From the IMG/VR virus record IMGVR_UViG_3300047444_000577, positions 1 through 64,000 of that record: DNA of 64,000 bases, one strand, 5' to 3'. Shown piece after piece: positions 43,899 to 58,343 of this stretch; the first letter of the stretch is position 1, and each line of letters begins with the position of its first letter. A program made the translations under genes and the position numbers. The notes beneath the pieces were generated by a model, which was given only the letters and a program-made list of their open reading frames with translations, ran no database searches and had not been told where the DNA came from. The DNA comes from a virus.

Positions 43899-44656
43899 CG
43901 TCCGGCCTTCCCCGAGTTGCCTGTGCTTCCCGTGTGCGGGGTGAACGAGGGGAAGGCGTAAGGATTGCCACTCGGAGGCGTCGGCAGGAGGTTCATCGTG
44001 ACGGACACCTGTCCGCGCTGGGGAACCATGCTCTGCGTCCAGTGGGTGTACTGCACGTCCAGCTCGGTGATGAACCCGTAGTAGGACAGGCTGGACCCGA
44101 TGACGGCGTACGCGGGAGTGTTGACCATCGGTCCGGCCGGGCCCCCCGAAAACGCGCCCTTCTGGAGACCGCTCAGCGCCGTCGCGTCGGCAGCCGTGCC
44201 CTGGGCAGGGAGCGTCATCGGTGCCGCGATGCCCGTGATCTTGTACAGCGACAGCACGTCGTAGGCGACCCCGTACAGCGGGACCTGGATCCGGGCGTCA
44301 CCGGTCAGTTTCGAGGAGTCCCACAGCTCATAGGTGCGGTCGAACAGAAGCGTGAAGTTCACGCTCTGCGAAAGCGGCATGAGGAAAACCCCGGACGTCA
44401 CGTCGTCCGGCACCTGCGAATTAGGGTCCGCGAGAACGTTGCTGTCCACCGAGTGCGCAACGTTCAGCACACTCGGGTTGTACAGGAAATTGCAGCGGTA
44501 CCGAACGTTGTTGATCGGCTTCTCCGCAATGATGAAGCCCCTCGTCAACTTCGGACCGCCGGTCCTACCGTCGTCGTAATTACTGGTGCTTTGTATGAAC
44601 GGAATCGCGGTAATTCGCGGATCGAAAGGACCGTTGTCCATTATGGAACTAGCCAT
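43895..44656 (-). CDS. Tail tube initiator-like protein
   Basis: FLYNPS, FTLLFDRT, YYGFI..LDVQYTHW; follows the tape measure gene. Confidence 0.65.
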   Translation of the reverse strand: MASSIMDNGPFDPRITAIPFIQSTSNYDDGRTGGPKLTRGFIIAEKPINNVRYRCNFLYNPSVLNVAHSVDSNVLADPNSQVPDDVTSGVFLMPLSQSVNFTLLFDRTYELWDSSKLTGDARIQVPLYGVAYDVLSLYKITGIAAPMTLPAQGTAADATALSGLQKGAFSGGPAGPMVNTPAYAVIGSSLSYYGFITELDVQYTHWTQSMVPQRGQVSVTMNLLPTPPSGNPYAFPSFTPHTGSTGNSGKAGR

Positions 44657-47600
44657 TAACTCTTTCCTGACGCGATGAGGTTGATCCGCTTGTCCTCGGC
44701 GAGTGCCCGCATGAACTGGCTCGCCGCGTCACGGGCTGACTGCTGGTCCATCACGCCCTGCACCTGCACAGTGATCGCGCCAGGGTGGAAGTTGAGCGTC
44801 GCCGCTCCGCCCTTCGCACCCGCGCCACCGATCCCACCGACGATCGGCGAGTTGCTGGCCAGCGCCTTGCGGAACGCCTCGGCCTGGTACTGGGGCAGGA
44901 TCATCTCGCCCTTGTGGACCCGCGCCGTCTGGTCGACGTCGATGTTCGTCGAGCCCACCGCGTAACCCTTGTAGGCACCGCCGTTGGACACGGACCTCAC
45001 GCCGGGGATGTTGGCCAGCGAACCGTAGCGACTCTCCCCGTAGCGGACACCAGCGATGATGTTGTCGACCGGGTTCCAGATGTTCTTGTGACCAGCGATG
45101 GACCACTGACTGAACGTCGAGTCGATCGTCTGCATGACACCCTTGGAGGGGTGCCCCGCCTTGGCGTTGGAGTCCCAGTTGTTCTGAGCCCTCGGGTTTC
45201 CACCGGACTCGCCCATGGCGATCGTGTTGACGAACGCCTCATTCTGCGGGGTGTCCTGGTGCAGGATCCCCAGGGCGGTGGAGATCCAGTTCTTCAGCGA
45301 CCCGGACGGCATCGCACCGGCCGCCTGGCTACCGTTGCTGGTGGTCTTGGTCGTGCCCTGATGCGCACCGACACCGGAGCCGACGCTGGCCGAGCCGATG
45401 GAGGAGATACCGGCCGCAATCGCGTTGACCTCCTCCGTGGACCCGTAAGAACCCGTGTCACCGCCAAAGCCCATGGAGGACAGCCGGTTGGACTTCGACC
45501 CCGCCGTGTCGCTGTTGCTGTTGGTCTGGTCGCCCATGCTTCCGACCGACCCCAGGATCCGCCGAGCGTTGGTGAACTCGCCCGGGGAGAAGGAGCGGAT
45601 GCGCACGGTAGCACCCGTGTGCGGAGCCTCCAGGCACTTCCCGTTGCCCACGCACATGACGACGTGGTGGGCCGGATTGCCCACGAACATCAGGTCTCCC
45701 GCGCGCACAGCGTTGAGAGGCACCTCAGTGCCAACGCCCTGCTGCTGCGCGGCCGTACGGGGCAGAGAGACACCGATCTGCTTGAAGATGTACTGAGTCA
45801 GGCCAGAGCAGTCGAAGGACGACTGAGGAGAGTTGCCACCCCACTTGTAGGGCATCCCGAGGAACCTCTTGCCGATCGAGATGACCGCCGACGCGGTCTT
45901 ACCCGCGCCCTGCGTTCCCGTAGCCACAGAAGCCCCTCCAGCACCCGTGGCGGTACCGCCAGAGGCACCACCGGGGTTACCGTCACCGGAGGCGTTCGAA
46001 GGGTGCGACCGGTCCCACTGCAGACCGAGCGCCTTGAGTTCGGCAGCCTTCTGCGCCTTCGTCGCATGGGTGTGGTCCTTCTGCCCGTGAAGACCGAAGA
46101 GCCAGTCCGCCATACTCGCGTCCAGGAAGGACTTCTTGCTCTTGGTCAGGTCCCCGCTGTGCGACTTATCCAGGGTGCGCGCGGTGGTGCCACCCGCAGC
46201 CGAAGCCGCCAGCGCGGCCCACCCCACCGGACCCGCCGCAATGGCAGCGCTCTCCCCCGCGACCGCCGTGCCGGTGACGGCAACACCCTCACTCGCAGCA
46301 GTGGCCGCCGACGCTGCCGACCGGGCGGTACGCAACCTGCCCAGTGCCCCGATGCCCCGCACCGCACCGTACGCACCCAGGCCCGAGGACAGGCTGGACC
46401 CAACGAGCGAACCCGCCCCACCGGAGAACCCCAGCGCACTGTTCGCACCCGTGGCATTGAGCACGCCCTGCAGCGCGGTGGAGAAGTCATCCAGGTACTT
46501 CGTCGCCGTCTGCAGACCAGACGTGAAGGAGTCGTTGATGTTGACGTCCTGGTTGCGCAACGTCCCGGCACGAGTCTGCAGGGTGTTGGCGGTCGAACCA
46601 CCGATCTGCCACTTGTTCAACTGGTTCAACGCGCTCTTGGAACCTGCGTCAGCCTTGTTGGCCACACTGGTGTACGCCGTCGCCGAGGAGCCGTGAGTCT
46701 GCGCCAGCAGCATCCCGCGCAGCTCGCCCTTGACCAGTTGGACGGTATTGGGATCCAGGCCCCACGAATTGATCGACTGGTTCAGGCCCGACGCGGGGTC
46801 ATCCAGCGTCGACGACAACTGCTGCGCGTTCTTGACGTTCTTCAACTGCGGGAACTGCCGGTAGATCTGCTGGGCAACCTGCCGGGGCGTCTGCTTCTGG
46901 CCGCCGACGATGGTGCTGATACCCATCCCGCGCAGCATGTTGTACGAACCGGCCTGCCACAGGGACGCACTGCCCGCAGCCCGCTGCGCCTGCGACATAC
47001 CCGGGTTCATGTACCCCGAGGTACCGGTGACGTAGTTCCACTGGGTGTTGAACCCCGGGGTGTTGCCCGACAGGCCCTGCCCGGCCAGCGTCCCATAGGC
47101 CGACGCGGCGTCCGTGGTGGACTGGGCTGTGTAGTTGTTACGAAACGCCTGATTGCGCAGCGCCTGCCACGACGAAGCGGAACCCTGGGCAGCCTGGTAG
47201 GCGGTGGTCTGCATGACCACCTGGTCCGGCAGCTTCTGCTGCCCCCAACTCACCAGGGTCGAGGCAGCGCCTCCCAGGCCGTACGACCTTCCCTGGTTGG
47301 CGCGACCACGACCGCCCCAACCACCGTTGTTGGCCCCGCCACCACCCTGCGAGCCCCCTGTGAAGGAGGACCCACCACCGTTGGGCGTACCGGAATTACG
47401 CGAGCCCCGGGAACGAGTCGGCGCGGTCGACGGAGCATCCGCACCACCATTCGACCGACCGTGCCCGTAGTTGCTGCTCCCATTCCACACGTCGTTGGCC
47501 AGCAGCCCGAAACCACGAGCCCTCGACATCTGCCCGACGCCAGAAGAGACGCCCTGCAGACCCCTGGTCAGGTCATTGATGGTACGGGTAAGGGACGAGA

Positions 47601-47667
47601 TCGCATCCTGGGCCTTGTTAACCCCGAGGATCGGTCCCGCCCCTGCCGTCGTGCTTTCATCCGCCAT
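44656..47667 (-). CDS. Tape measure protein with NlpC/P60 and lytic transglycosylase domains
   Basis: 1003 aa; PYKWGG..FDCSGL..HHV (NlpC/P60); ESGGNPRAQNNWDSNA...GVMQ (SLT). Confidence 0.85.
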   Translation of the reverse strand: MADESTTAGAGPILGVNKAQDAISSLTRTINDLTRGLQGVSSGVGQMSRARGFGLLANDVWNGSSNYGHGRSNGGADAPSTAPTRSRGSRNSGTPNGGGSSFTGGSQGGGGANNGGWGGRGRANQGRSYGLGGAASTLVSWGQQKLPDQVVMQTTAYQAAQGSASSWQALRNQAFRNNYTAQSTTDAASAYGTLAGQGLSGNTPGFNTQWNYVTGTSGYMNPGMSQAQRAAGSASLWQAGSYNMLRGMGISTIVGGQKQTPRQVAQQIYRQFPQLKNVKNAQQLSSTLDDPASGLNQSINSWGLDPNTVQLVKGELRGMLLAQTHGSSATAYTSVANKADAGSKSALNQLNKWQIGGSTANTLQTRAGTLRNQDVNINDSFTSGLQTATKYLDDFSTALQGVLNATGANSALGFSGGAGSLVGSSLSSGLGAYGAVRGIGALGRLRTARSAASAATAASEGVAVTGTAVAGESAAIAAGPVGWAALAASAAGGTTARTLDKSHSGDLTKSKKSFLDASMADWLFGLHGQKDHTHATKAQKAAELKALGLQWDRSHPSNASGDGNPGGASGGTATGAGGASVATGTQGAGKTASAVISIGKRFLGMPYKWGGNSPQSSFDCSGLTQYIFKQIGVSLPRTAAQQQGVGTEVPLNAVRAGDLMFVGNPAHHVVMCVGNGKCLEAPHTGATVRIRSFSPGEFTNARRILGSVGSMGDQTNSNSDTAGSKSNRLSSMGFGGDTGSYGSTEEVNAIAAGISSIGSASVGSGVGAHQGTTKTTSNGSQAAGAMPSGSLKNWISTALGILHQDTPQNEAFVNTIAMGESGGNPRAQNNWDSNAKAGHPSKGVMQTIDSTFSQWSIAGHKNIWNPVDNIIAGVRYGESRYGSLANIPGVRSVSNGGAYKGYAVGSTNIDVDQTARVHKGEMILPQYQAEAFRKALASNSPIVGGIGGAGAKGGAATLNFHPGAITVQVQGVMDQQSARDAASQFMRALAEDKRINLIASGKS

Positions 47668-47833
47668 TTTCAGCCTCAGCCACTCGCCTATTTCGCTGCG
47701 CCCTGAACCATTCCACCCAGTGCAGACGCTCGCGCACGGACAACCGGCGTATTTCGCTGAGGCTCCATGCCGGGCTCAGTTCCACTAGTTGCTCGTATTC
47801 GAAATACGTGTCGTGGTAGTTACAGGCCCTGAA
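47657..47833 (-). CDS. Tail assembly chaperone, C-terminal (frameshifted) part
   Basis: +1 frame relative to 47820-48686; WSLSEIRRLSVRERLHW is typical of a second chaperone frame; no obvious RBS/ATG of its own. Confidence 0.6.
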   Translation of the reverse strand, partial: FRACNYHDTYFEYEQLVELSPAWSLSEIRRLSVRERLHWVEWFRAQRNRRVAEAENGG

Positions 47834-48686
47834 ACAGATCCCCCGCACTGATGTACAAGGGGACCTCCTTACCGCACGCTTCATGCGTGAACTTGATGTC
47901 ATTGTACTGAGGGCCGGGTTGCTTTTGCTCAATGGCATCCAGGATCGACCGGCGGTCGACGATCCCCAGAGAGCGCGCGAATTCAGCATTGCTGCTGACT
48001 GCCGTCTCGGTGCCATTTGCCGTGACGACGGATATCAGACACCGGGAAAGCAGAAGGGTGTCCTGCTCGGACGCGGTGGTGCGCTCGGCGACAGCCAGTA
48101 CAGCGTCCTGGTCCGAGCCGACGGGGAGCCGGACGAACGCCTTTCTTCCGTTGCGCAGGGGCACCTCGAAGATGCGCTGGGAGGGGTCGTCCATGCGGCG
48201 CACGGGGATCTCGTCGAGCGTGACCGACAGCCGGAACTCCTCGCCGCAGTGCATGCAGGAGAACTTGTCCCAGACGATCTCGTCGCCGAAGGTGGCGCGC
48301 CGGATCTCCAAGAGCAGGTTGTCCCGGTCGCCGAGCAAGAGGTTGCTGAGCACGGACTGGCTGGCCTGCTGATCGCCGATCGAGACAGTCCCGCAGGCCA
48401 GGAGCGTGGAGACGAACTTACCCAAACCGGCCTGCCTGGCCTTGGCGATGGCTTCCTCGTCTGCGCCGGTCAGTTCGCGAACCTCGGCGTCGTACCGAAC
48501 TGAGGCGAAGTCCCCACCCGAGACGTAGCCTCCCGGCAGGCGGAAACTGCCACCTGCCGGGAGGGGGATCTCGGGCTTGACGACCTGTCCCTCCCCGTTC
48601 TGCATCGCCGCCGAAATAGCGGCATTGGCGAGACCGGGGTTCATGAGGGGGTTGGTGTACCCCCCGGTATGAAGGTCGTTAGCCAC
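47820..48686 (-). CDS. Tail assembly chaperone / gp26-like protein
   Basis: VRELTGADEEAI, GDRD.LLL.IRRATFG, CMHCG; lies between tube and tape measure genes. Confidence 0.75.
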   Translation of the reverse strand: MANDLHTGGYTNPLMNPGLANAAISAAMQNGEGQVVKPEIPLPAGGSFRLPGGYVSGGDFASVRYDAEVRELTGADEEAIAKARQAGLGKFVSTLLACGTVSIGDQQASQSVLSNLLLGDRDNLLLEIRRATFGDEIVWDKFSCMHCGEEFRLSVTLDEIPVRRMDDPSQRIFEVPLRNGRKAFVRLPVGSDQDAVLAVAERTTASEQDTLLLSRCLISVVTANGTETAVSSNAEFARSLGIVDRRSILDAIEQKQPGPQYNDIKFTHEACGKEVPLYISAGDLFQGL

Positions 48687-48723
48687 GGATAGTGCTCCTA
48701 ATCGTGTCGTGTTTCGGCGCTAG

Positions 48724-49566
48724 TTAGAAACTAACGTCTTGCGTTCCCGTACTGGTAGCCAGGGCGAACTCGAACCCTTCGTGGGCCAGGGTCATCTGCT
48801 GGACGATGATCGCGTTGGCTCCGGCGTCGAGGTCGGACCAGGCTATTGCGGTCGGCCACGCGTTCCAGACGCGGAACGAGGCCTTGACCGGCGGGTTCGG
48901 AACGGTGACCGGGAAATCCAGGACGTTGATGGTGACCATCTGCCGGAACTCCGCACCGGGCTTGCCAGTTCCCGTTCCCTGGATGACGGTGAACAACTGC
49001 CGCATCCAGTCCATCATCTGCGTGTCGCCGATCGCCATGCCCTTGGACAGGGTGATCGGAGCGAAGTCGGACTGACCCATTCTGTTACCCCTCCGATTCC
49101 TCGGAGTGGGCCGATCATTTCTGTCGGCCTCTTACGCTCTCGCGCAAGATCGGAACTATATCTTGATCCCGGAGGGATCTCCCGTACATAGTCTCTGAAC
49201 CTTCCCCATTTGACAGGGGCTCGGCTGCTGATTTTCCCTACCCTGATCTTTTCGAACCATCACGCCTAGGCTTTCGCCTTACGTTGTGGTGACCAGGTCT
49301 AACAGGACGTTCCAGCAATTCTCGGGATTATCCTGCGCAACTTACGCTGCGAGGGCCCAATCGCTCATAGGCATCTTCTGCGTGGTCGTATTCATACCGC
49401 CTTCGCGGTATGGAATGACCTCGGTCGTGACGTTGAGGCCGGACACGGACATGAAGCCCATGCGGGCGAAGCCCTTGATGTCCGGGTGCTGGATCTGCAC
49501 CTGGAACTTGAAGTTGCGGAGGGGGTCCGTGGCGATGTGCCCCACGGACGGCGTGACCTTGGCCAT
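48724..49566 (-). CDS. Tail tube protein (T4 gp19-like), spliced: join(49369..49566, 48724..49077), 183 aa
   Basis: Exon 1 DPLRNFKF...GF..VSGL...YREGGMNTTTQKMP joins in frame to exon 2 GQSDFAPITLSKG...NAWP..DLDA...LAHEG. Confidence 0.9.
49078..49368 (-). ncRNA. Group I intron (291 nt, ORF-less) in tail tube gene
   Basis: 5' exon ends in U (CCU|); intron ends in G. P AAUUGCUGGAA, Q AAUCAGCAG, R GUUCAGAGACUA, S AAGAUAUAGUUCC. P1 GCCU/GGGC; P10 GAUU/GGUC. Confidence 0.93.
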
Positions 49567-49578
49567 GGTTTCTTCTCC

Positions 49579-51117
49579 TTACGAGGTGGACGTGGCGGTG
49601 CTGGACGCGCCGCTGTACTGGCCGACCTCGATGACGATGTACTCGGCGGGGTTGAGCAGGGCGACGCCGACCTGGACGTTGACCTGGCCGTTCTGCACGG
49701 AGGTCGGCGTGTTGTTGGTCGCGTCGCAGATCACGAAGAAGGCCTGGCTCGGGGTCGACCCGGACAGCACGCCTATCTGCAGGAGCGTCATCAGGTACTG
49801 GGTGACGACTGCCGAGACCTGGGACCAGAGGATCTCGTCGTTGGGCTCGAACACCGCGAAAGCCGTGGTGTCGACCAGCCCCTTCTCGATCATCATCAGA
49901 GAGCGCCGGATGGACACGTAGCGGTCCGGCATGCCAGCCGACAGGGTCCGTGCGCCGTAGATGACGAACCCCACCCCCGGGAGGCTCTTGATGACGTTGA
50001 CGCCCGCCACGTTCAGGGAGTCCTGGTCGGTGGAGGAGAACCGGAACTGCAGGTCGAGAACACCCCGCAAGGCCGTGTCGGGACCGGCCGGAGGCTTCTG
50101 CACACCACGCGAGGCGTCGGTGCGCGCGTACTGGCCCAGCACCGCTCCGCCTGGGGGCAGCAGCCTGGCGCTGCCGTTGGCCAGCGTGGCGGGGTCGTTG
50201 ACGATCAGCCACGGCCCGTAGATGGCCACGTGCGAGGAAGACGTCAGTGAACCCGCGCCGGTCGCCTGACCTAGCAGGGTGACAGTGTAGGAGGCCTCGG
50301 TGTCCGACGAGGAAGCCTTCGCCCCGTCCACGACCACGAACACGTTGCCCTGGGCCTCAGCCCAGGCGATGACAGCGTTCAGGTTGGTCGAGTCGGTGAC
50401 GCCGGGGAGGTTGAGAACCAGGTTGTCCGTCAGCACACTCAGGCGCTCGGTCGCGGCAACCAGGTCCACCGAAGCGGTTCCCTCGGTGCCACCGATCAGC
50501 GGCGTACCGGTCTGCACGGCCGGGGCGTGGGTGGCGTCCCACGCTGTGGTCAGGAGCGACTGGATCTGGATGTACGCCGAGCCCGTCACCGGACTGTTGA
50601 TCAGCGCGGTCGCGTTGCGGGAGTCGGCCGGGTCCAGGGAGACGTCGGTGAAGCGCTCCTTTGCGAACGCGCTGGAGGTACCGCCGACGTAGACGACCAG
50701 GTCGAAGCGACCGGCCCCCGCAGCACTGGCGACGACGTCGAGGAAGATCTCGTTGCCCCACGTCCCCGGGGAGATCGCGGAGACCTTGAGGGTGCCCTCT
50801 GGGGTGGTCTCGGTGTCCATCAGGGTGACGGTGGCCGTGGCTGCGTCCGAGGCAGCCGCGCGCACCACGTAGCAGCCGCTGCCACCATTGTTGAAGTACT
50901 GGTAGACCGCGAACGGCAACAGGTCAGACGTGTCTCCGAAGCCGCCGTAGATGGACACGTACTGGGAGAAGGAGGACACCAGGGTCGGTGCCAGTGGCCC
51001 GCCCTGCTTGCAGGTGCCGACGAACGCGGCGCTGGACGCACCGGGAGTCGTCGCGGCCTGCGCGAGAGGGGTCAGCGTCTCGTTCAGGTAGACGCCTGGC
51101 CGCTTGTAAACGGTCAT
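49579..51117 (-). CDS. Contractile tail sheath protein
   Basis: YKRPGVY, YFNNGG..CYVVR, YGPW, GARTL...YVSIRR, FEPND. Confidence 0.95.
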   Translation of the reverse strand: MTVYKRPGVYLNETLTPLAQAATTPGASSAAFVGTCKQGGPLAPTLVSSFSQYVSIYGGFGDTSDLLPFAVYQYFNNGGSGCYVVRAAASDAATATVTLMDTETTPEGTLKVSAISPGTWGNEIFLDVVASAAGAGRFDLVVYVGGTSSAFAKERFTDVSLDPADSRNATALINSPVTGSAYIQIQSLLTTAWDATHAPAVQTGTPLIGGTEGTASVDLVAATERLSVLTDNLVLNLPGVTDSTNLNAVIAWAEAQGNVFVVVDGAKASSSDTEASYTVTLLGQATGAGSLTSSSHVAIYGPWLIVNDPATLANGSARLLPPGGAVLGQYARTDASRGVQKPPAGPDTALRGVLDLQFRFSSTDQDSLNVAGVNVIKSLPGVGFVIYGARTLSAGMPDRYVSIRRSLMMIEKGLVDTTAFAVFEPNDEILWSQVSAVVTQYLMTLLQIGVLSGSTPSQAFFVICDATNNTPTSVQNGQVNVQVGVALLNPAEYIVIEVGQYSGASSTATSTS

Positions 51118-56510: not shown

Positions 56511-58343
56511 TCAGTTGGTCTCGGCGATCAGGACGGCCTGGTCGGTGATGAGGCCAAGGCCCCAGATCGCGTACCAGGCGAGTGCGTGCTCTCGCATTCT
56601 GTTACCCCTCCGGTCTCCCGGAGTGGGCTGGTCATTTCTGCCAGCCTCTGCATGTCTCCATGCAGATCCGAACTATATCTTCACCCGCGTGGGGTGACCC
56701 GTACATAGTCTGTGAACCTTCCCCAGCTAAAGGGCTCGGCTGCTGATTATCCCTACCCTCAGATTTTCAAGCGTTCACGCTCAGACTTTCGTCTCACGTT
56801 GTAGCTCTGAGGTCTAGCAGGACGTCCCAGCAATTCTCGGGTTGTTCACTGACAGATTGCTCTGTCAGGCGGCCAAAGTGAAACCGAAGTCGAGGATGCC
56901 GCCGTCGCGCAGTTCCACCGGGAGGGAGATCGCGTGCCCGAAGGCGTTGTCGCCCAGGAAGATGCTCTGGTAGACCGTCTTCCCCAGTGCGTTGGTGAAC
57001 TGCTTCACCTGCGTGGTCTCGATGAACACCACGTCGTTGAGGCGGCCGATCTCGCCGATCATGAACGAGCCCGGGGCCGCGTACTTGGTGACCTCGATCC
57101 ACTCGGGGTCATCGCGCAACTGCCGCGACTGGTGCGGGTGGACGAACGCCACGTACGTGTCCCCCAAGCGGGGGACGTTCTTGGTGCTCAGTGTCTCGGT
57201 GGCGTCCTTGGTGAGGGCCGCCGTGAAACTGAAGGTGCCGTCCAGCAGGTCAGTGCCGGTGGCGGCGGTGCCGTGCGAGTACTGCGCCATGACGCCGAAC
57301 GCGCTGGTCTGGGCGTACTTGTTGTAGCCCCAGATCTTGCTCGACGCCTGCAGGAGGGTGTCCCGCGCGGACTGGTCGAGGTAGAGCGCCATGTTTCGCG
57401 TTCTGTTACCCCTCCGGATTTCTCCGAAGTGGGCTGGTCATTTCTGCCAGCCTCTACAGGTTTCCCTGTAGACCCGAACATCTCTTGACCCTCTCGGGTC
57501 TCCCGTGCATGTTCTGTGAACCTTCCCCAGTTAAGGGGCTCGGCTGCTGATTGTCCCTACCCTCTTCTTCTCAAACCATCGCGCTCGGGCTTTCGCCCCA
57601 CGCTGTGGTGAAGAGGTCTAGCAGGATGTTCCAGCAATTCTCGGGATTTTCACTGAGAGGTTTCCCTCTCAGGCGGCCAAAGTGAGACCGAGCAGACGCG
57701 AGGCCGAGGCCATCACGTCGTCGAAGGACGCGTTGAGCAGGAGTTCGGAGACGGCGACCGCGTAGCCGTGCTCAGCCACCGTGATGGAGAACTGAGAGGC
57801 CGACAGGGCGTTGGTCTGCATCCGAACGCCTTCGACCAACTGGGAAGCGGCTCCCAAATTGTTGTACCTCATGAAGTTGATTTGGAGACCGGGCTGAACA
57901 CCCAACTCCGTCTTCTTCACGGCGAACTGCTCGACAATTCGCGATTGTTACCCGCTGGCTGCGGGGCCAAAGCATTTCTGTCTGGCTCTTGCACTTTTCC
58001 ATCGTGCAAGTTCGGACTATATTTTCATCTCCAGTACCGACCTACTGCCCATCTAAAGGCTGGAACTGTTGGAGATGCCTCGCGTGTAGTCTCTACGGAG
58101 TCCCAGATGTTGGGTTCCCTCGGTATTCCCCATTCGCCCATTTGGAGGGGTTCACCGATACAGCGTGGTTCTCACTGACCCATCACTGGATCAGGCGGCC
58201 CGAGACCGGAGGATCGGCATGCTCTGGAACAGGATCTCCTTGGACCAGATGGTCTGGATCGCCGCACCGAGCGTGCTGTTGGCACCCGAGTAGTTCGTCG
58301 GCGAGGCCGACAGGTTCGGGGTACCGGTGATTGCACTGGGCAT
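56511..58343 (-). CDS. Major capsid protein (N4-gp56-like), spliced: join(58205..58343, 57687..57934, 56883..57398, 56511..56594), 328 aa
   Basis: Exons of 139+248+516+84 nt join in frame: ...MPILR-F-EQFAVKKTELG...SRLLG|RNMALYLD...GILDFG|REHALAWYAIWG...ETN*. AAAAGGA RBS; follows the scaffold gene. Confidence 0.92.
56595..56882 (-). ncRNA. Group I intron 3 of major capsid gene (288 nt, ORF-less)
   Basis: Boundaries CGGU|...G|CGA. P AAUUGCUGGGA, Q AAUCAGCAG, R GUUCACAGACUA, S AAGAUAUAGUUCG; IGS GGCCG. Confidence 0.93.
57399..57686 (-). ncRNA. Group I intron 2 of major capsid gene (288 nt, ORF-less)
   Basis: Boundaries CGGU|...G|CGA. P AAUUGCUGGAA, Q AAUCAGCAG, R GUUCACAGAACA, S AAGAGAUGUUCG (compensatory P7). 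Confidence 0.93.
57935..58204 (-). ncRNA. Group I intron 1 of major capsid gene (270 nt, ORF-less, different core type)
   Basis: Boundaries CGGU|...G|UCGAG. P UAUCGGUGAA, Q AAUACCGAG, R CGUAGAGACUA, S AAAAUAUAGUCC; P10 CUCGG/UCGAG. Confidence 0.92.

Follow-up and report, generated by a model that had tools for sequence, protein, structure and literature searches.

What interrupts the tail tube gene of this phage, how did it come to lie there, and can a whole tube protein still be made across it? The gene, an essential one, is that of a rhizosphere-soil myophage of about 98 kb that is BRock/GiJojo-like (Streptomyces-type) and whose structural genes lie on the minus strand and share about 70% nucleotide identity with the Streptomyces myophages BRock and GiJojo. 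The window that we analyzed, a stretch of 64,000 nucleotides, comprises the opening 64 kb of an IMG/VR record of 98,440 bp whose completeness was judged to be 99%. The window sequence recurs in several rhizosphere metagenomes, and 0.99-1.00 of sampled words were recovered in five rhizosphere runs, which may be one campaign or the very samples that yielded the record. The split tube gene is adjoined by the sheath gene (49579-51117; PF04984, PF17482) on one side and by a gene for a T4_baseplate-family protein (47820-48686) on the other. Beyond the latter, a 1003-aa open reading frame (44656-47667) occupies the position of BRock gp134, which is annotated as 'endolysin' in the BRock record.

Both halves of the interrupted gene are recognizable as tail tube. 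Exon 1 (49369-49566, minus strand) encodes 66 aa (MAKV...TTQKMP), its last base being the U of a CCU codon, and exon 2 (48724-49077, minus strand) encodes 117 aa followed by a stop and starts with GQSDF (GQSDFAPITLSK...). The two exons were delimited with the PF06841 profile and by alignment with homologues, GiJojo gp81 and BRock gp137 in the case of exon 1. Exon 1 matches profile positions 1-45 of PF06841, the T4 gp19 tail tube family (38.5 bits, E = 1.2e-9), and exon 2 matches positions 47-134 (52.9 bits, E = 4.5e-14), each scoring above the cut-off of 28.2 bits; the profile is therefore continuous over the junction and has been cut cleanly in two. When joined, the exons give a full-length match to this T4 gp19-type family.

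In GiJojo gp81 and BRock gp137, the protein runs uninterrupted across the junction (YREGGMNTTTQKMPGQSDF(A/S)PITLS). Over the 25-position junction block GiJojo is identical to the window at 25/25 positions and BRock carries one substitution, and the nucleotide alignment with the two phages contains a single gap of exactly 291 nt. The original prediction had placed a 291-nt insertion between QKMP and GQSDF, and the exact gap relative to these intron-less homologues confirms it, at 49368-49078 on the minus strand. Protein continuity alone lets the boundaries slide by one base. Following the rule that the exon ends in U and the intron in G, we chose CCU/...G/GGU (a slash marks a junction or insertion site throughout), which gives an ORF-less insert that begins AUGAGC and has its omega-G at 49078. 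The in-frame TAA expected nine codons in was found at 49344-49342, as the ninth codon of the insert, after eight codons.

Contigs of four other rhizosphere runs, mapped on 48400-49900, contain the site in both its states. In relatives about 90-95% identical to the window, 49077 is joined straight to 49370 in rhizosphere DNA contigs, and the intron-less junction alleles read CCC/GGT (a single base replaced), CCC/GGA and CCG/GGG. Intron-bearing contigs with 0 differences from the window cover both junctions in other runs (for example, 49065-49471), which rules out an assembly artefact. Taken together, the intron-less and the zero-difference intron-bearing contigs demonstrate that the insertion is real, precise and optional among close relatives. 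The intron-bearing phage is a minor variant in the samples of four of the rhizosphere runs (X6-X9), where intron-less alleles of relatives have contig depths of 18-860 versus 4-8 for intron-bearing ones, figures that serve as a rough guide.

We searched the sequence with Infernal and the Rfam group I model. RF00028 matched 49131-49417 (minus strand) with 54.3 bits (E = 5.1e-11, or 1.9e-14 against the genome alone), above its gathering score of 50 bits. The match does not take in the last two hairpins, ending 53 nt before the actual 3' boundary. The Rfam alignment set P1 on a hairpin in the exon (49412-49393) and the end of the intron at 49131, and both placements were overruled by the homology-fixed boundaries. 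The hairpin itself is a perfect 8-bp helix with a GAAG loop, inside exon 1 at 49393-49412 (minus strand; codons YREGGM), 24 nt before the 5' splice site. It is probably a by-product of the codons, and it could affect the folding of P1.

Folded alone, the intron has a minimum free energy of -116.3 kcal/mol (z = -5.42), and 0 of 200 shuffles folded as well. The minimum free energy structure independently yields P2, P4, P5 with a branched extension, P6, P8, P9, P9.1 and P9.2. We also aligned 32 near-full-length members of the intron family and wrote out by hand the pairs from P2 to P9.2 together with those of the P7 pseudoknot. Across the 32 members and 83 pairs, 95.0% of cells are paired. Column shuffles give 78.3%, with 0 of 500 reaching the observed value, and the figure falls to 33-47% in controls in which the partner strand was slid. 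Compensatory changes are found in 51 of the 83 pairs, some of them in the P3/P7 pseudoknot, and every helix is intact in the tube intron. The family is a structurally constrained ribozyme.

All helices of the tube intron lie on the minus strand. The P2 hairpin (49332-49354) has a GUAA loop that holds the in-frame TAA (helix 96.9% paired, 6/8 pairs compensatory). The 5' strand of P3, UCCCG (49323-49327), pairs with CGGGA at 49184-49180 (100% paired, 3/5 compensatory), and the fold and family covariation both give a P4-P5-P6 domain (49199-49317) whose branched P5 extension (49307-49236) includes a GAAA loop at 49275-49272. The 5' strand of P7, GAGACUA (the R element, 49189-49195), contains a bulged A and belongs to a pseudoknot helix that is 98.2% paired (3/6 compensatory); its 3' strand, UAGUUCC (the S element, 49152-49158), has one extra U relative to most members. 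P8 (49165-49179) has compensatory changes in 5/6 pairs, and the terminal hairpins P9 (49149-49130), P9.1 (49129-49109) and P9.2 (49106-49091), spanning 49091-49149, have them in 17/20. The P, Q, R and S elements, P3, the GAAA-capped P5 extension and the P9 hairpins had all been predicted, and each is present where it was placed. The accompanying claim, that the helices covary with capsid introns 2 and 3 of the same genome, likewise held, with 25 of 88 pairs compensatory among the three copies.

Within P7 of the tube intron, G176-C216 is the presumed G-binding pair, A175 is bulged and the extra U215, beside that pair, breaks the 3' strand. This extra U is common only to the tube intron, capsid intron 3 (56666-56672 region, minus strand) and L013_3728; the other 29 of the 32 members read UAG-UCC or an equivalent. 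A long-range pairing offered by RNAalifold, between CCU at the start of P2 and the GGG before UAACAG, was dropped because its 5' side never varies. The tube intron is like RF00028 and the T4 td, nrdB and sunY introns in its P/Q/R/S core, P3-P7 pseudoknot, 5' U.G and omega-G, and it differs from them in its periphery, with a branched P5 extension plus P9.1 and P9.2. P7.1/P7.2 hairpins are typical of subgroup IA phage introns; only UGUA lies between the P7 5' strand and the P3 3' strand of the tube intron, so these hairpins are absent from it. The insert is a group I intron that splits the tail tube gene.

What fits this intron to this gene? The internal guide lies at 49355-49362 (minus strand), where GAUU (49362-49359) is followed by GGGC (49358-49355), the latter directly 5' of P2. 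Reading the sequence directly bore out the proposed fit to the tube site. GGGC forms P1 with exon GCCU, leaving the exon-terminal U49369 in a U.G wobble with G49358 at the splice site, and GAUU forms P10 with GGUC through four pairs (two G-U, one U-A and one C-G). P1, lengthened by a pair between intron A1 and U10, has 4 exon-side pairs and one intron-side pair. With P1 of this length and two G-U pairs among the four of P10, specificity must be low unless something else contributes to it. The capsid exon 4 of the phage itself carries an empty GCCU/GGUA at 56579-56572 (minus strand), in the Ala-Trp codons of REHALAWY; since that site is unoccupied, a 4+4-nt guide is insufficient for occupancy.

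Guides elsewhere in the family change with their exons. We restricted this comparison to junctions verified by protein homology. Automated splice-site and guide calls, which gave wrong junctions for some rows (capsid intron 3 and L121, for example), were set aside; GC-rich DNA leaves several frames open, which makes such calls noisy. In capsid introns 2 and 3 the guide GCCG faces the exon end CGGU, in the capsid intron of contig L061 GCCAC faces GUGGU, in the L017 intron GCCU faces AGGU and in the L108 intron GCGA faces UCGU. At least five guide variants in the family match their own exon ends at junctions fixed independently by protein homology, and this covariation of guide and exon speaks for the P1 assignment as well as for the notion of retargeting. 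In L017 (1475-1775) and L108 (4887-5188), family introns lie four codons apart in homologous genes (…NF(T/V)VAKVDVTAMG…), so that each serves as the intron-less reference of the other. Judged from these sequences, the pair appears to be a clean natural example of retargeting to a neighboring site.

The tube intron is one of four in this genome, the other three of which split the major capsid gene (56511-58343, minus strand), whose exon blocks align end to end with GiJojo gp71 and BRock gp147. Capsid introns 2 (57686-57399) and 3 (56882-56595), each 288 nt and on the minus strand, are also matched by RF00028, at 57454-57694 and 56648-56890. Capsid intron 1 (about 58205-57936, minus strand), in which a different core occurs with the 3' hairpins of the family, has a sub-threshold match at 57988-58219. 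Aligned with one another, the tube intron and capsid introns 2 and 3 have 83% mean column identity; the prediction that the three belong to one family is upheld by this alignment, by their shared covariation and by a clade in the core columns, described below.

Beyond this phage, a scan of IMG/VR found at least 113 contigs with the core 17-mer AATCAGCAGCCGAGCCC. An nhmmer profile search gave 183 matches in the contigs listed (L010-L122), with up to 9 on one contig (L119), and among these contigs L119, L063, L034, L047 and L105 each carry at least five intron copies. The family occupies at least seven insertion sites in one capsid gene family, among them MPILR/, FMV/KKT, RLLG/RNMA, YLDG/, RLNDVV/FIE, LDFG/REHA and REHALA/WY. 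The last of these is filled in L054, L013, L113, L121, L037, L093 and L084 by introns with the tube-type GGGC guide.

We looked for machinery that might move the intron. There is no ORF of 60 aa or more on either strand within 49078-49368, where internal ORFs reach 30 and 35 aa at most, and searches of the 98-kb genome found no HNH, HNH_3 or GIY-YIG gene, which makes the route of mobility conjectural. The introns of L023 and L032 do carry a 640-680-nt insert, at about profile position 199, between P7 and P9, and its product has an Endonuclease_7 domain (PF02945, E about 1e-20). The window contains one free-standing 144-aa Endonuclease_7 ORF (PF02945; 9774-10208, minus strand), the nuclease domain of which is 36-38% identical to the intron-borne ones of L023 and L032. 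Two roles are conceivable for its product, resolvase and trans-acting homing endonuclease.

Having placed the intron in its family, we turn to how it reached the tube gene. Scanning IMG/VR with exon 2 recovered 55 relatives at 65-82% aa identity, and the tube intron is absent from all 55 of these closer relatives. Three of the 55 carry the exact flanks of the window (AUGCCU/GGUCAGUCC) and are therefore empty perfect sites. An orthologous intron occurs in the distant provirus L065 (G001; a 94.8-kb record), which has a 298-nt intron at the identical QKMP/GQSDF site; between L065 and the window the tube protein is only 54-61% identical and the intron about 80% identical. The L065 tube intron shares the GGGC guide, its P10 (GACU) pairs slightly better, and the provirus also has a capsid intron at the site of window intron 1, with none at sites 2 and 3. 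A distribution as patchy as this speaks for horizontal acquisition at a specific site and against vertical inheritance. Arrival might have occurred by reverse splicing, by recombination into the GCCU/GGU site, or with the help of an endonuclease acting in trans.

A source closer at hand would be the capsid gene, if capsid intron 2 or 3 had been copied into the tube gene within this genome and the guide of the copy then retuned by point mutations. Core columns agree with such an origin: there the tube intron is nested with capsid introns 2 and 3 in a 14-row clade (94/85) inside a 97/97 clade. So do the 83% mean column identity of the three window copies and the case of contig L109, which holds two introns at different sites as sisters (100/99) and shows that intragenomic spread occurs. 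However, a maximum-likelihood tree of 33 whole introns separated the window tube intron, the L065 tube intron and the L061 capsid intron (RLNDVV/FIETT) from the other 30 (UFBoot 98), which makes introns of other contigs the nearest relatives, and the L065 provirus carries its tube intron without capsid introns 2 or 3.

The two ends of the molecule also disagree. Over the first 41 nt, comprising the guide and P2, the tube intron is only 44-47% identical to capsid introns 2 and 3 of the window but 61-68% identical to the REHALA/WY capsid lineage of other contigs, and the P3-P9 core has the opposite preference. AU tests rejected placing tube and REHALA/WY introns together in the core columns (p = 0.004) and rejected placing the tube introns with their core neighbors in 27 P2 columns (p-AU 1.7e-5), with groups that were named after a tree was seen, P2 columns that are few and paired, and an unrooted tree. 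On this evidence, we consider a point-mutated copy made within this genome to be an unlikely origin for the tube intron.

The incongruence between P2 and core is suggestive of an exchange of modules, or else of a GCCU-targeting intron that transposed and whose core was then homogenized. The target of the REHALA/WY lineage, UUGCCU/GGUAC, has the 8-mer UGCCUGGU in common with the tube site. Because the guide and P2 group with that lineage, retuning by point mutation and either an exchange of modules or transposition to a similar site are equally likely. Guide change on a constant background also occurs, since the L061 capsid intron and the L065 tube intron have near-identical P2 sequences and different guides (GCCAC for GUGGU, and GGGC for GCCU). 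The original prediction that one ribozyme lineage entered two structural genes by changing its guide is consistent with the 97/97 core clade and with the L061/L065 pair; what does not follow is that the retargeting happened in this genome, given that L065 has the tube intron and lacks capsid introns 2 and 3.

However it arrived, can the intron leave the transcript? Beside the fold family, the boundaries, the covariation, the guide complementarity and the optionality in DNA observed above, we infer catalysis and splicing in vivo: 49368-49078 is very probably a functional, spliced group I intron. The late transcript would carry the intron, and ribosomes on unspliced RNA would be halted by the UAA of the P2 loop. 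The RNA would fold into the P3-P9 core, with P1 formed by exon GCCU and guide GGGC and the U.G at the cleavage site, and free guanosine would cut after U49369. P10 (GAUU/GGUC) would then line up exon 2, and the 3'-OH of exon 1 would attack after omega-G 49078. The predicted product has a CCU-GGU junction and encodes a 183-aa tube protein with the junction peptide MPGQSDFAPITLSK.

A decayed intron that no longer splices would leave the tube gene broken and the contig a defective phage, and one could read the extra U in the 3' strand of P7 in this way, as well as the far greater depth of intron-less alleles in runs X6-X9 (18-860 versus 4-8, as a rough guide). Yet the core helices are all intact and are maintained by compensatory changes, the insert passes the RF00028 gathering score, and both exon frames are open and conserved. 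The genome is 99% complete, and the same sequence recurs in five rhizosphere runs (0.99-1.00 of sampled words), which may be one campaign or the very samples that yielded it. We regard decay as very improbable. That the tube is built from two unspliced polypeptides, exon 1 read to the UAA in P2 and exon 2 re-initiated at AUG 49080-49078 (74-aa and 118-aa products), is scarcely credible: a 118-aa ATG ORF does exist at 48724-49080, with GGAGG 9 nt before the AUG at a plausible Shine-Dalgarno distance, but the AUG is unconserved (CUG at the same place in L065, ACG in capsid intron 2), GGAGG forms the 3' strand of P9.2, a helix supported by covariation, and the split would fall inside a 25-residue motif that is unbroken in about 60 homologues with the junction examined. 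As a separate matter of annotation, the intron's 3' end (49078-49095, minus strand; ...GGAGGGGUAACAGAAUG) presents a Shine-Dalgarno-like GGAGG and an AUG in frame with exon 2, so that ORF finders call exon 2 as a stand-alone 118-aa gene.

A spliced intron in the tube gene would have company among known phages. In cluster J mycobacteriophages, LittleE has a capsid intron and BAKA and Optimus have a minor-tail intron (Pope et al., 2013; PMC3706429). The minor-tail intron is 265 bp and ORF-less, has 156 bp at 98% in common with the capsid intron, and, like it, is spliced as judged by RT-PCR (PMC3706429). The present phage is likewise one of high-GC actinobacteria, its capsid and tail genes contain group I-type introns that follow an exon U and end in G, and one intron lineage is found in two of its structural genes. 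Capsid intron 1 of the window has about 70% nucleotide similarity to the tail-gene (minor-tail intron) region of cluster J phages such as Redno2 and Optimus, and in the annotation of Redno2 the gp35 CDS is joined from two pieces. Unlike the present phage, cluster J phages are siphoviruses, and their interrupted tail gene encodes a minor tail protein, not the tube; the window differs further in having four introns in one genome, with copies in two genes bearing different guides. A blastn search with the tube intron gave no cluster J match.

Tube genes themselves are interrupted in a Staphylococcus phage and a Bacillus prophage. In Staphylococcus phage Twort, orf142, a group I intron host, was later identified as the tail tube gene (PMC11878797). 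As in the window, a myovirus tail tube gene is interrupted by group I introns, which in Twort are self-splicing; the differences are a low-GC Firmicute host, three introns in the tube gene and reported exon skipping. The Twort introns carry no ORF. Twort was absent from the blastn matches to our tube gene, and no sequence relationship was found. A prophage of Bacillus weihenstephanensis KBAB4 / B. cereus B4264 has an in-frame group I intron in its tail tube gene (Tourasse and Kolsto, 2008; PMC2504315), and an early stop within the first 27 nt, in P1/P2, is a common feature (PMC2504315). The intron in the tube gene and the early stop are alike in the present phage, where the TAA lies in the P2 loop, whereas the intron sequence is unrelated and the Bacillus case is a single intron. 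Among 50,697 isolated-phage records, blastn with the tube gene returned core-element matches only (PhiPA3 and a Vibrio phage) and no close intron relative. A literature search on Streptomyces phage introns returned only genome announcements stating that none were found, and no paper describing such introns.

Group I introns of phage capsid, tail and tail-tube genes have already been published, and the tube intron adds a well-documented case to a phenomenon already known. It leaves the known picture of phage introns unchanged and extends it to Streptomyces-type myophages. In this phage and its relatives, gene callers will list the tube gene as two truncated ORFs and miss the capsid gene, and, since the intron family is present in at least 113 IMG/VR contigs, many structural genes of soil phages are probably mis-annotated in the same way. 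If all four introns of this genome are spliced, their presence in two genes for highly abundant virion proteins would imply that splicing is very efficient.

The interest lies mainly in the family-scale pattern and not in the single intron. With at least seven capsid sites plus the tube site and five verified guides, the family offers a natural series for the retargeting of endonuclease-less introns, and occupied and empty tube alleles occur side by side in the same soils. It is conceivable, and we put this forward tentatively, that a very large, mostly endonuclease-free family spreads through the capsid and tail genes of soil actinophages, retargeting itself by way of a minimal guide of about 4+4 nt and swapping guide-plus-P2 between co-resident introns by recombination. 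If that is true, the family would be a natural, modular and effectively programmable retargeting system that works by reverse splicing.
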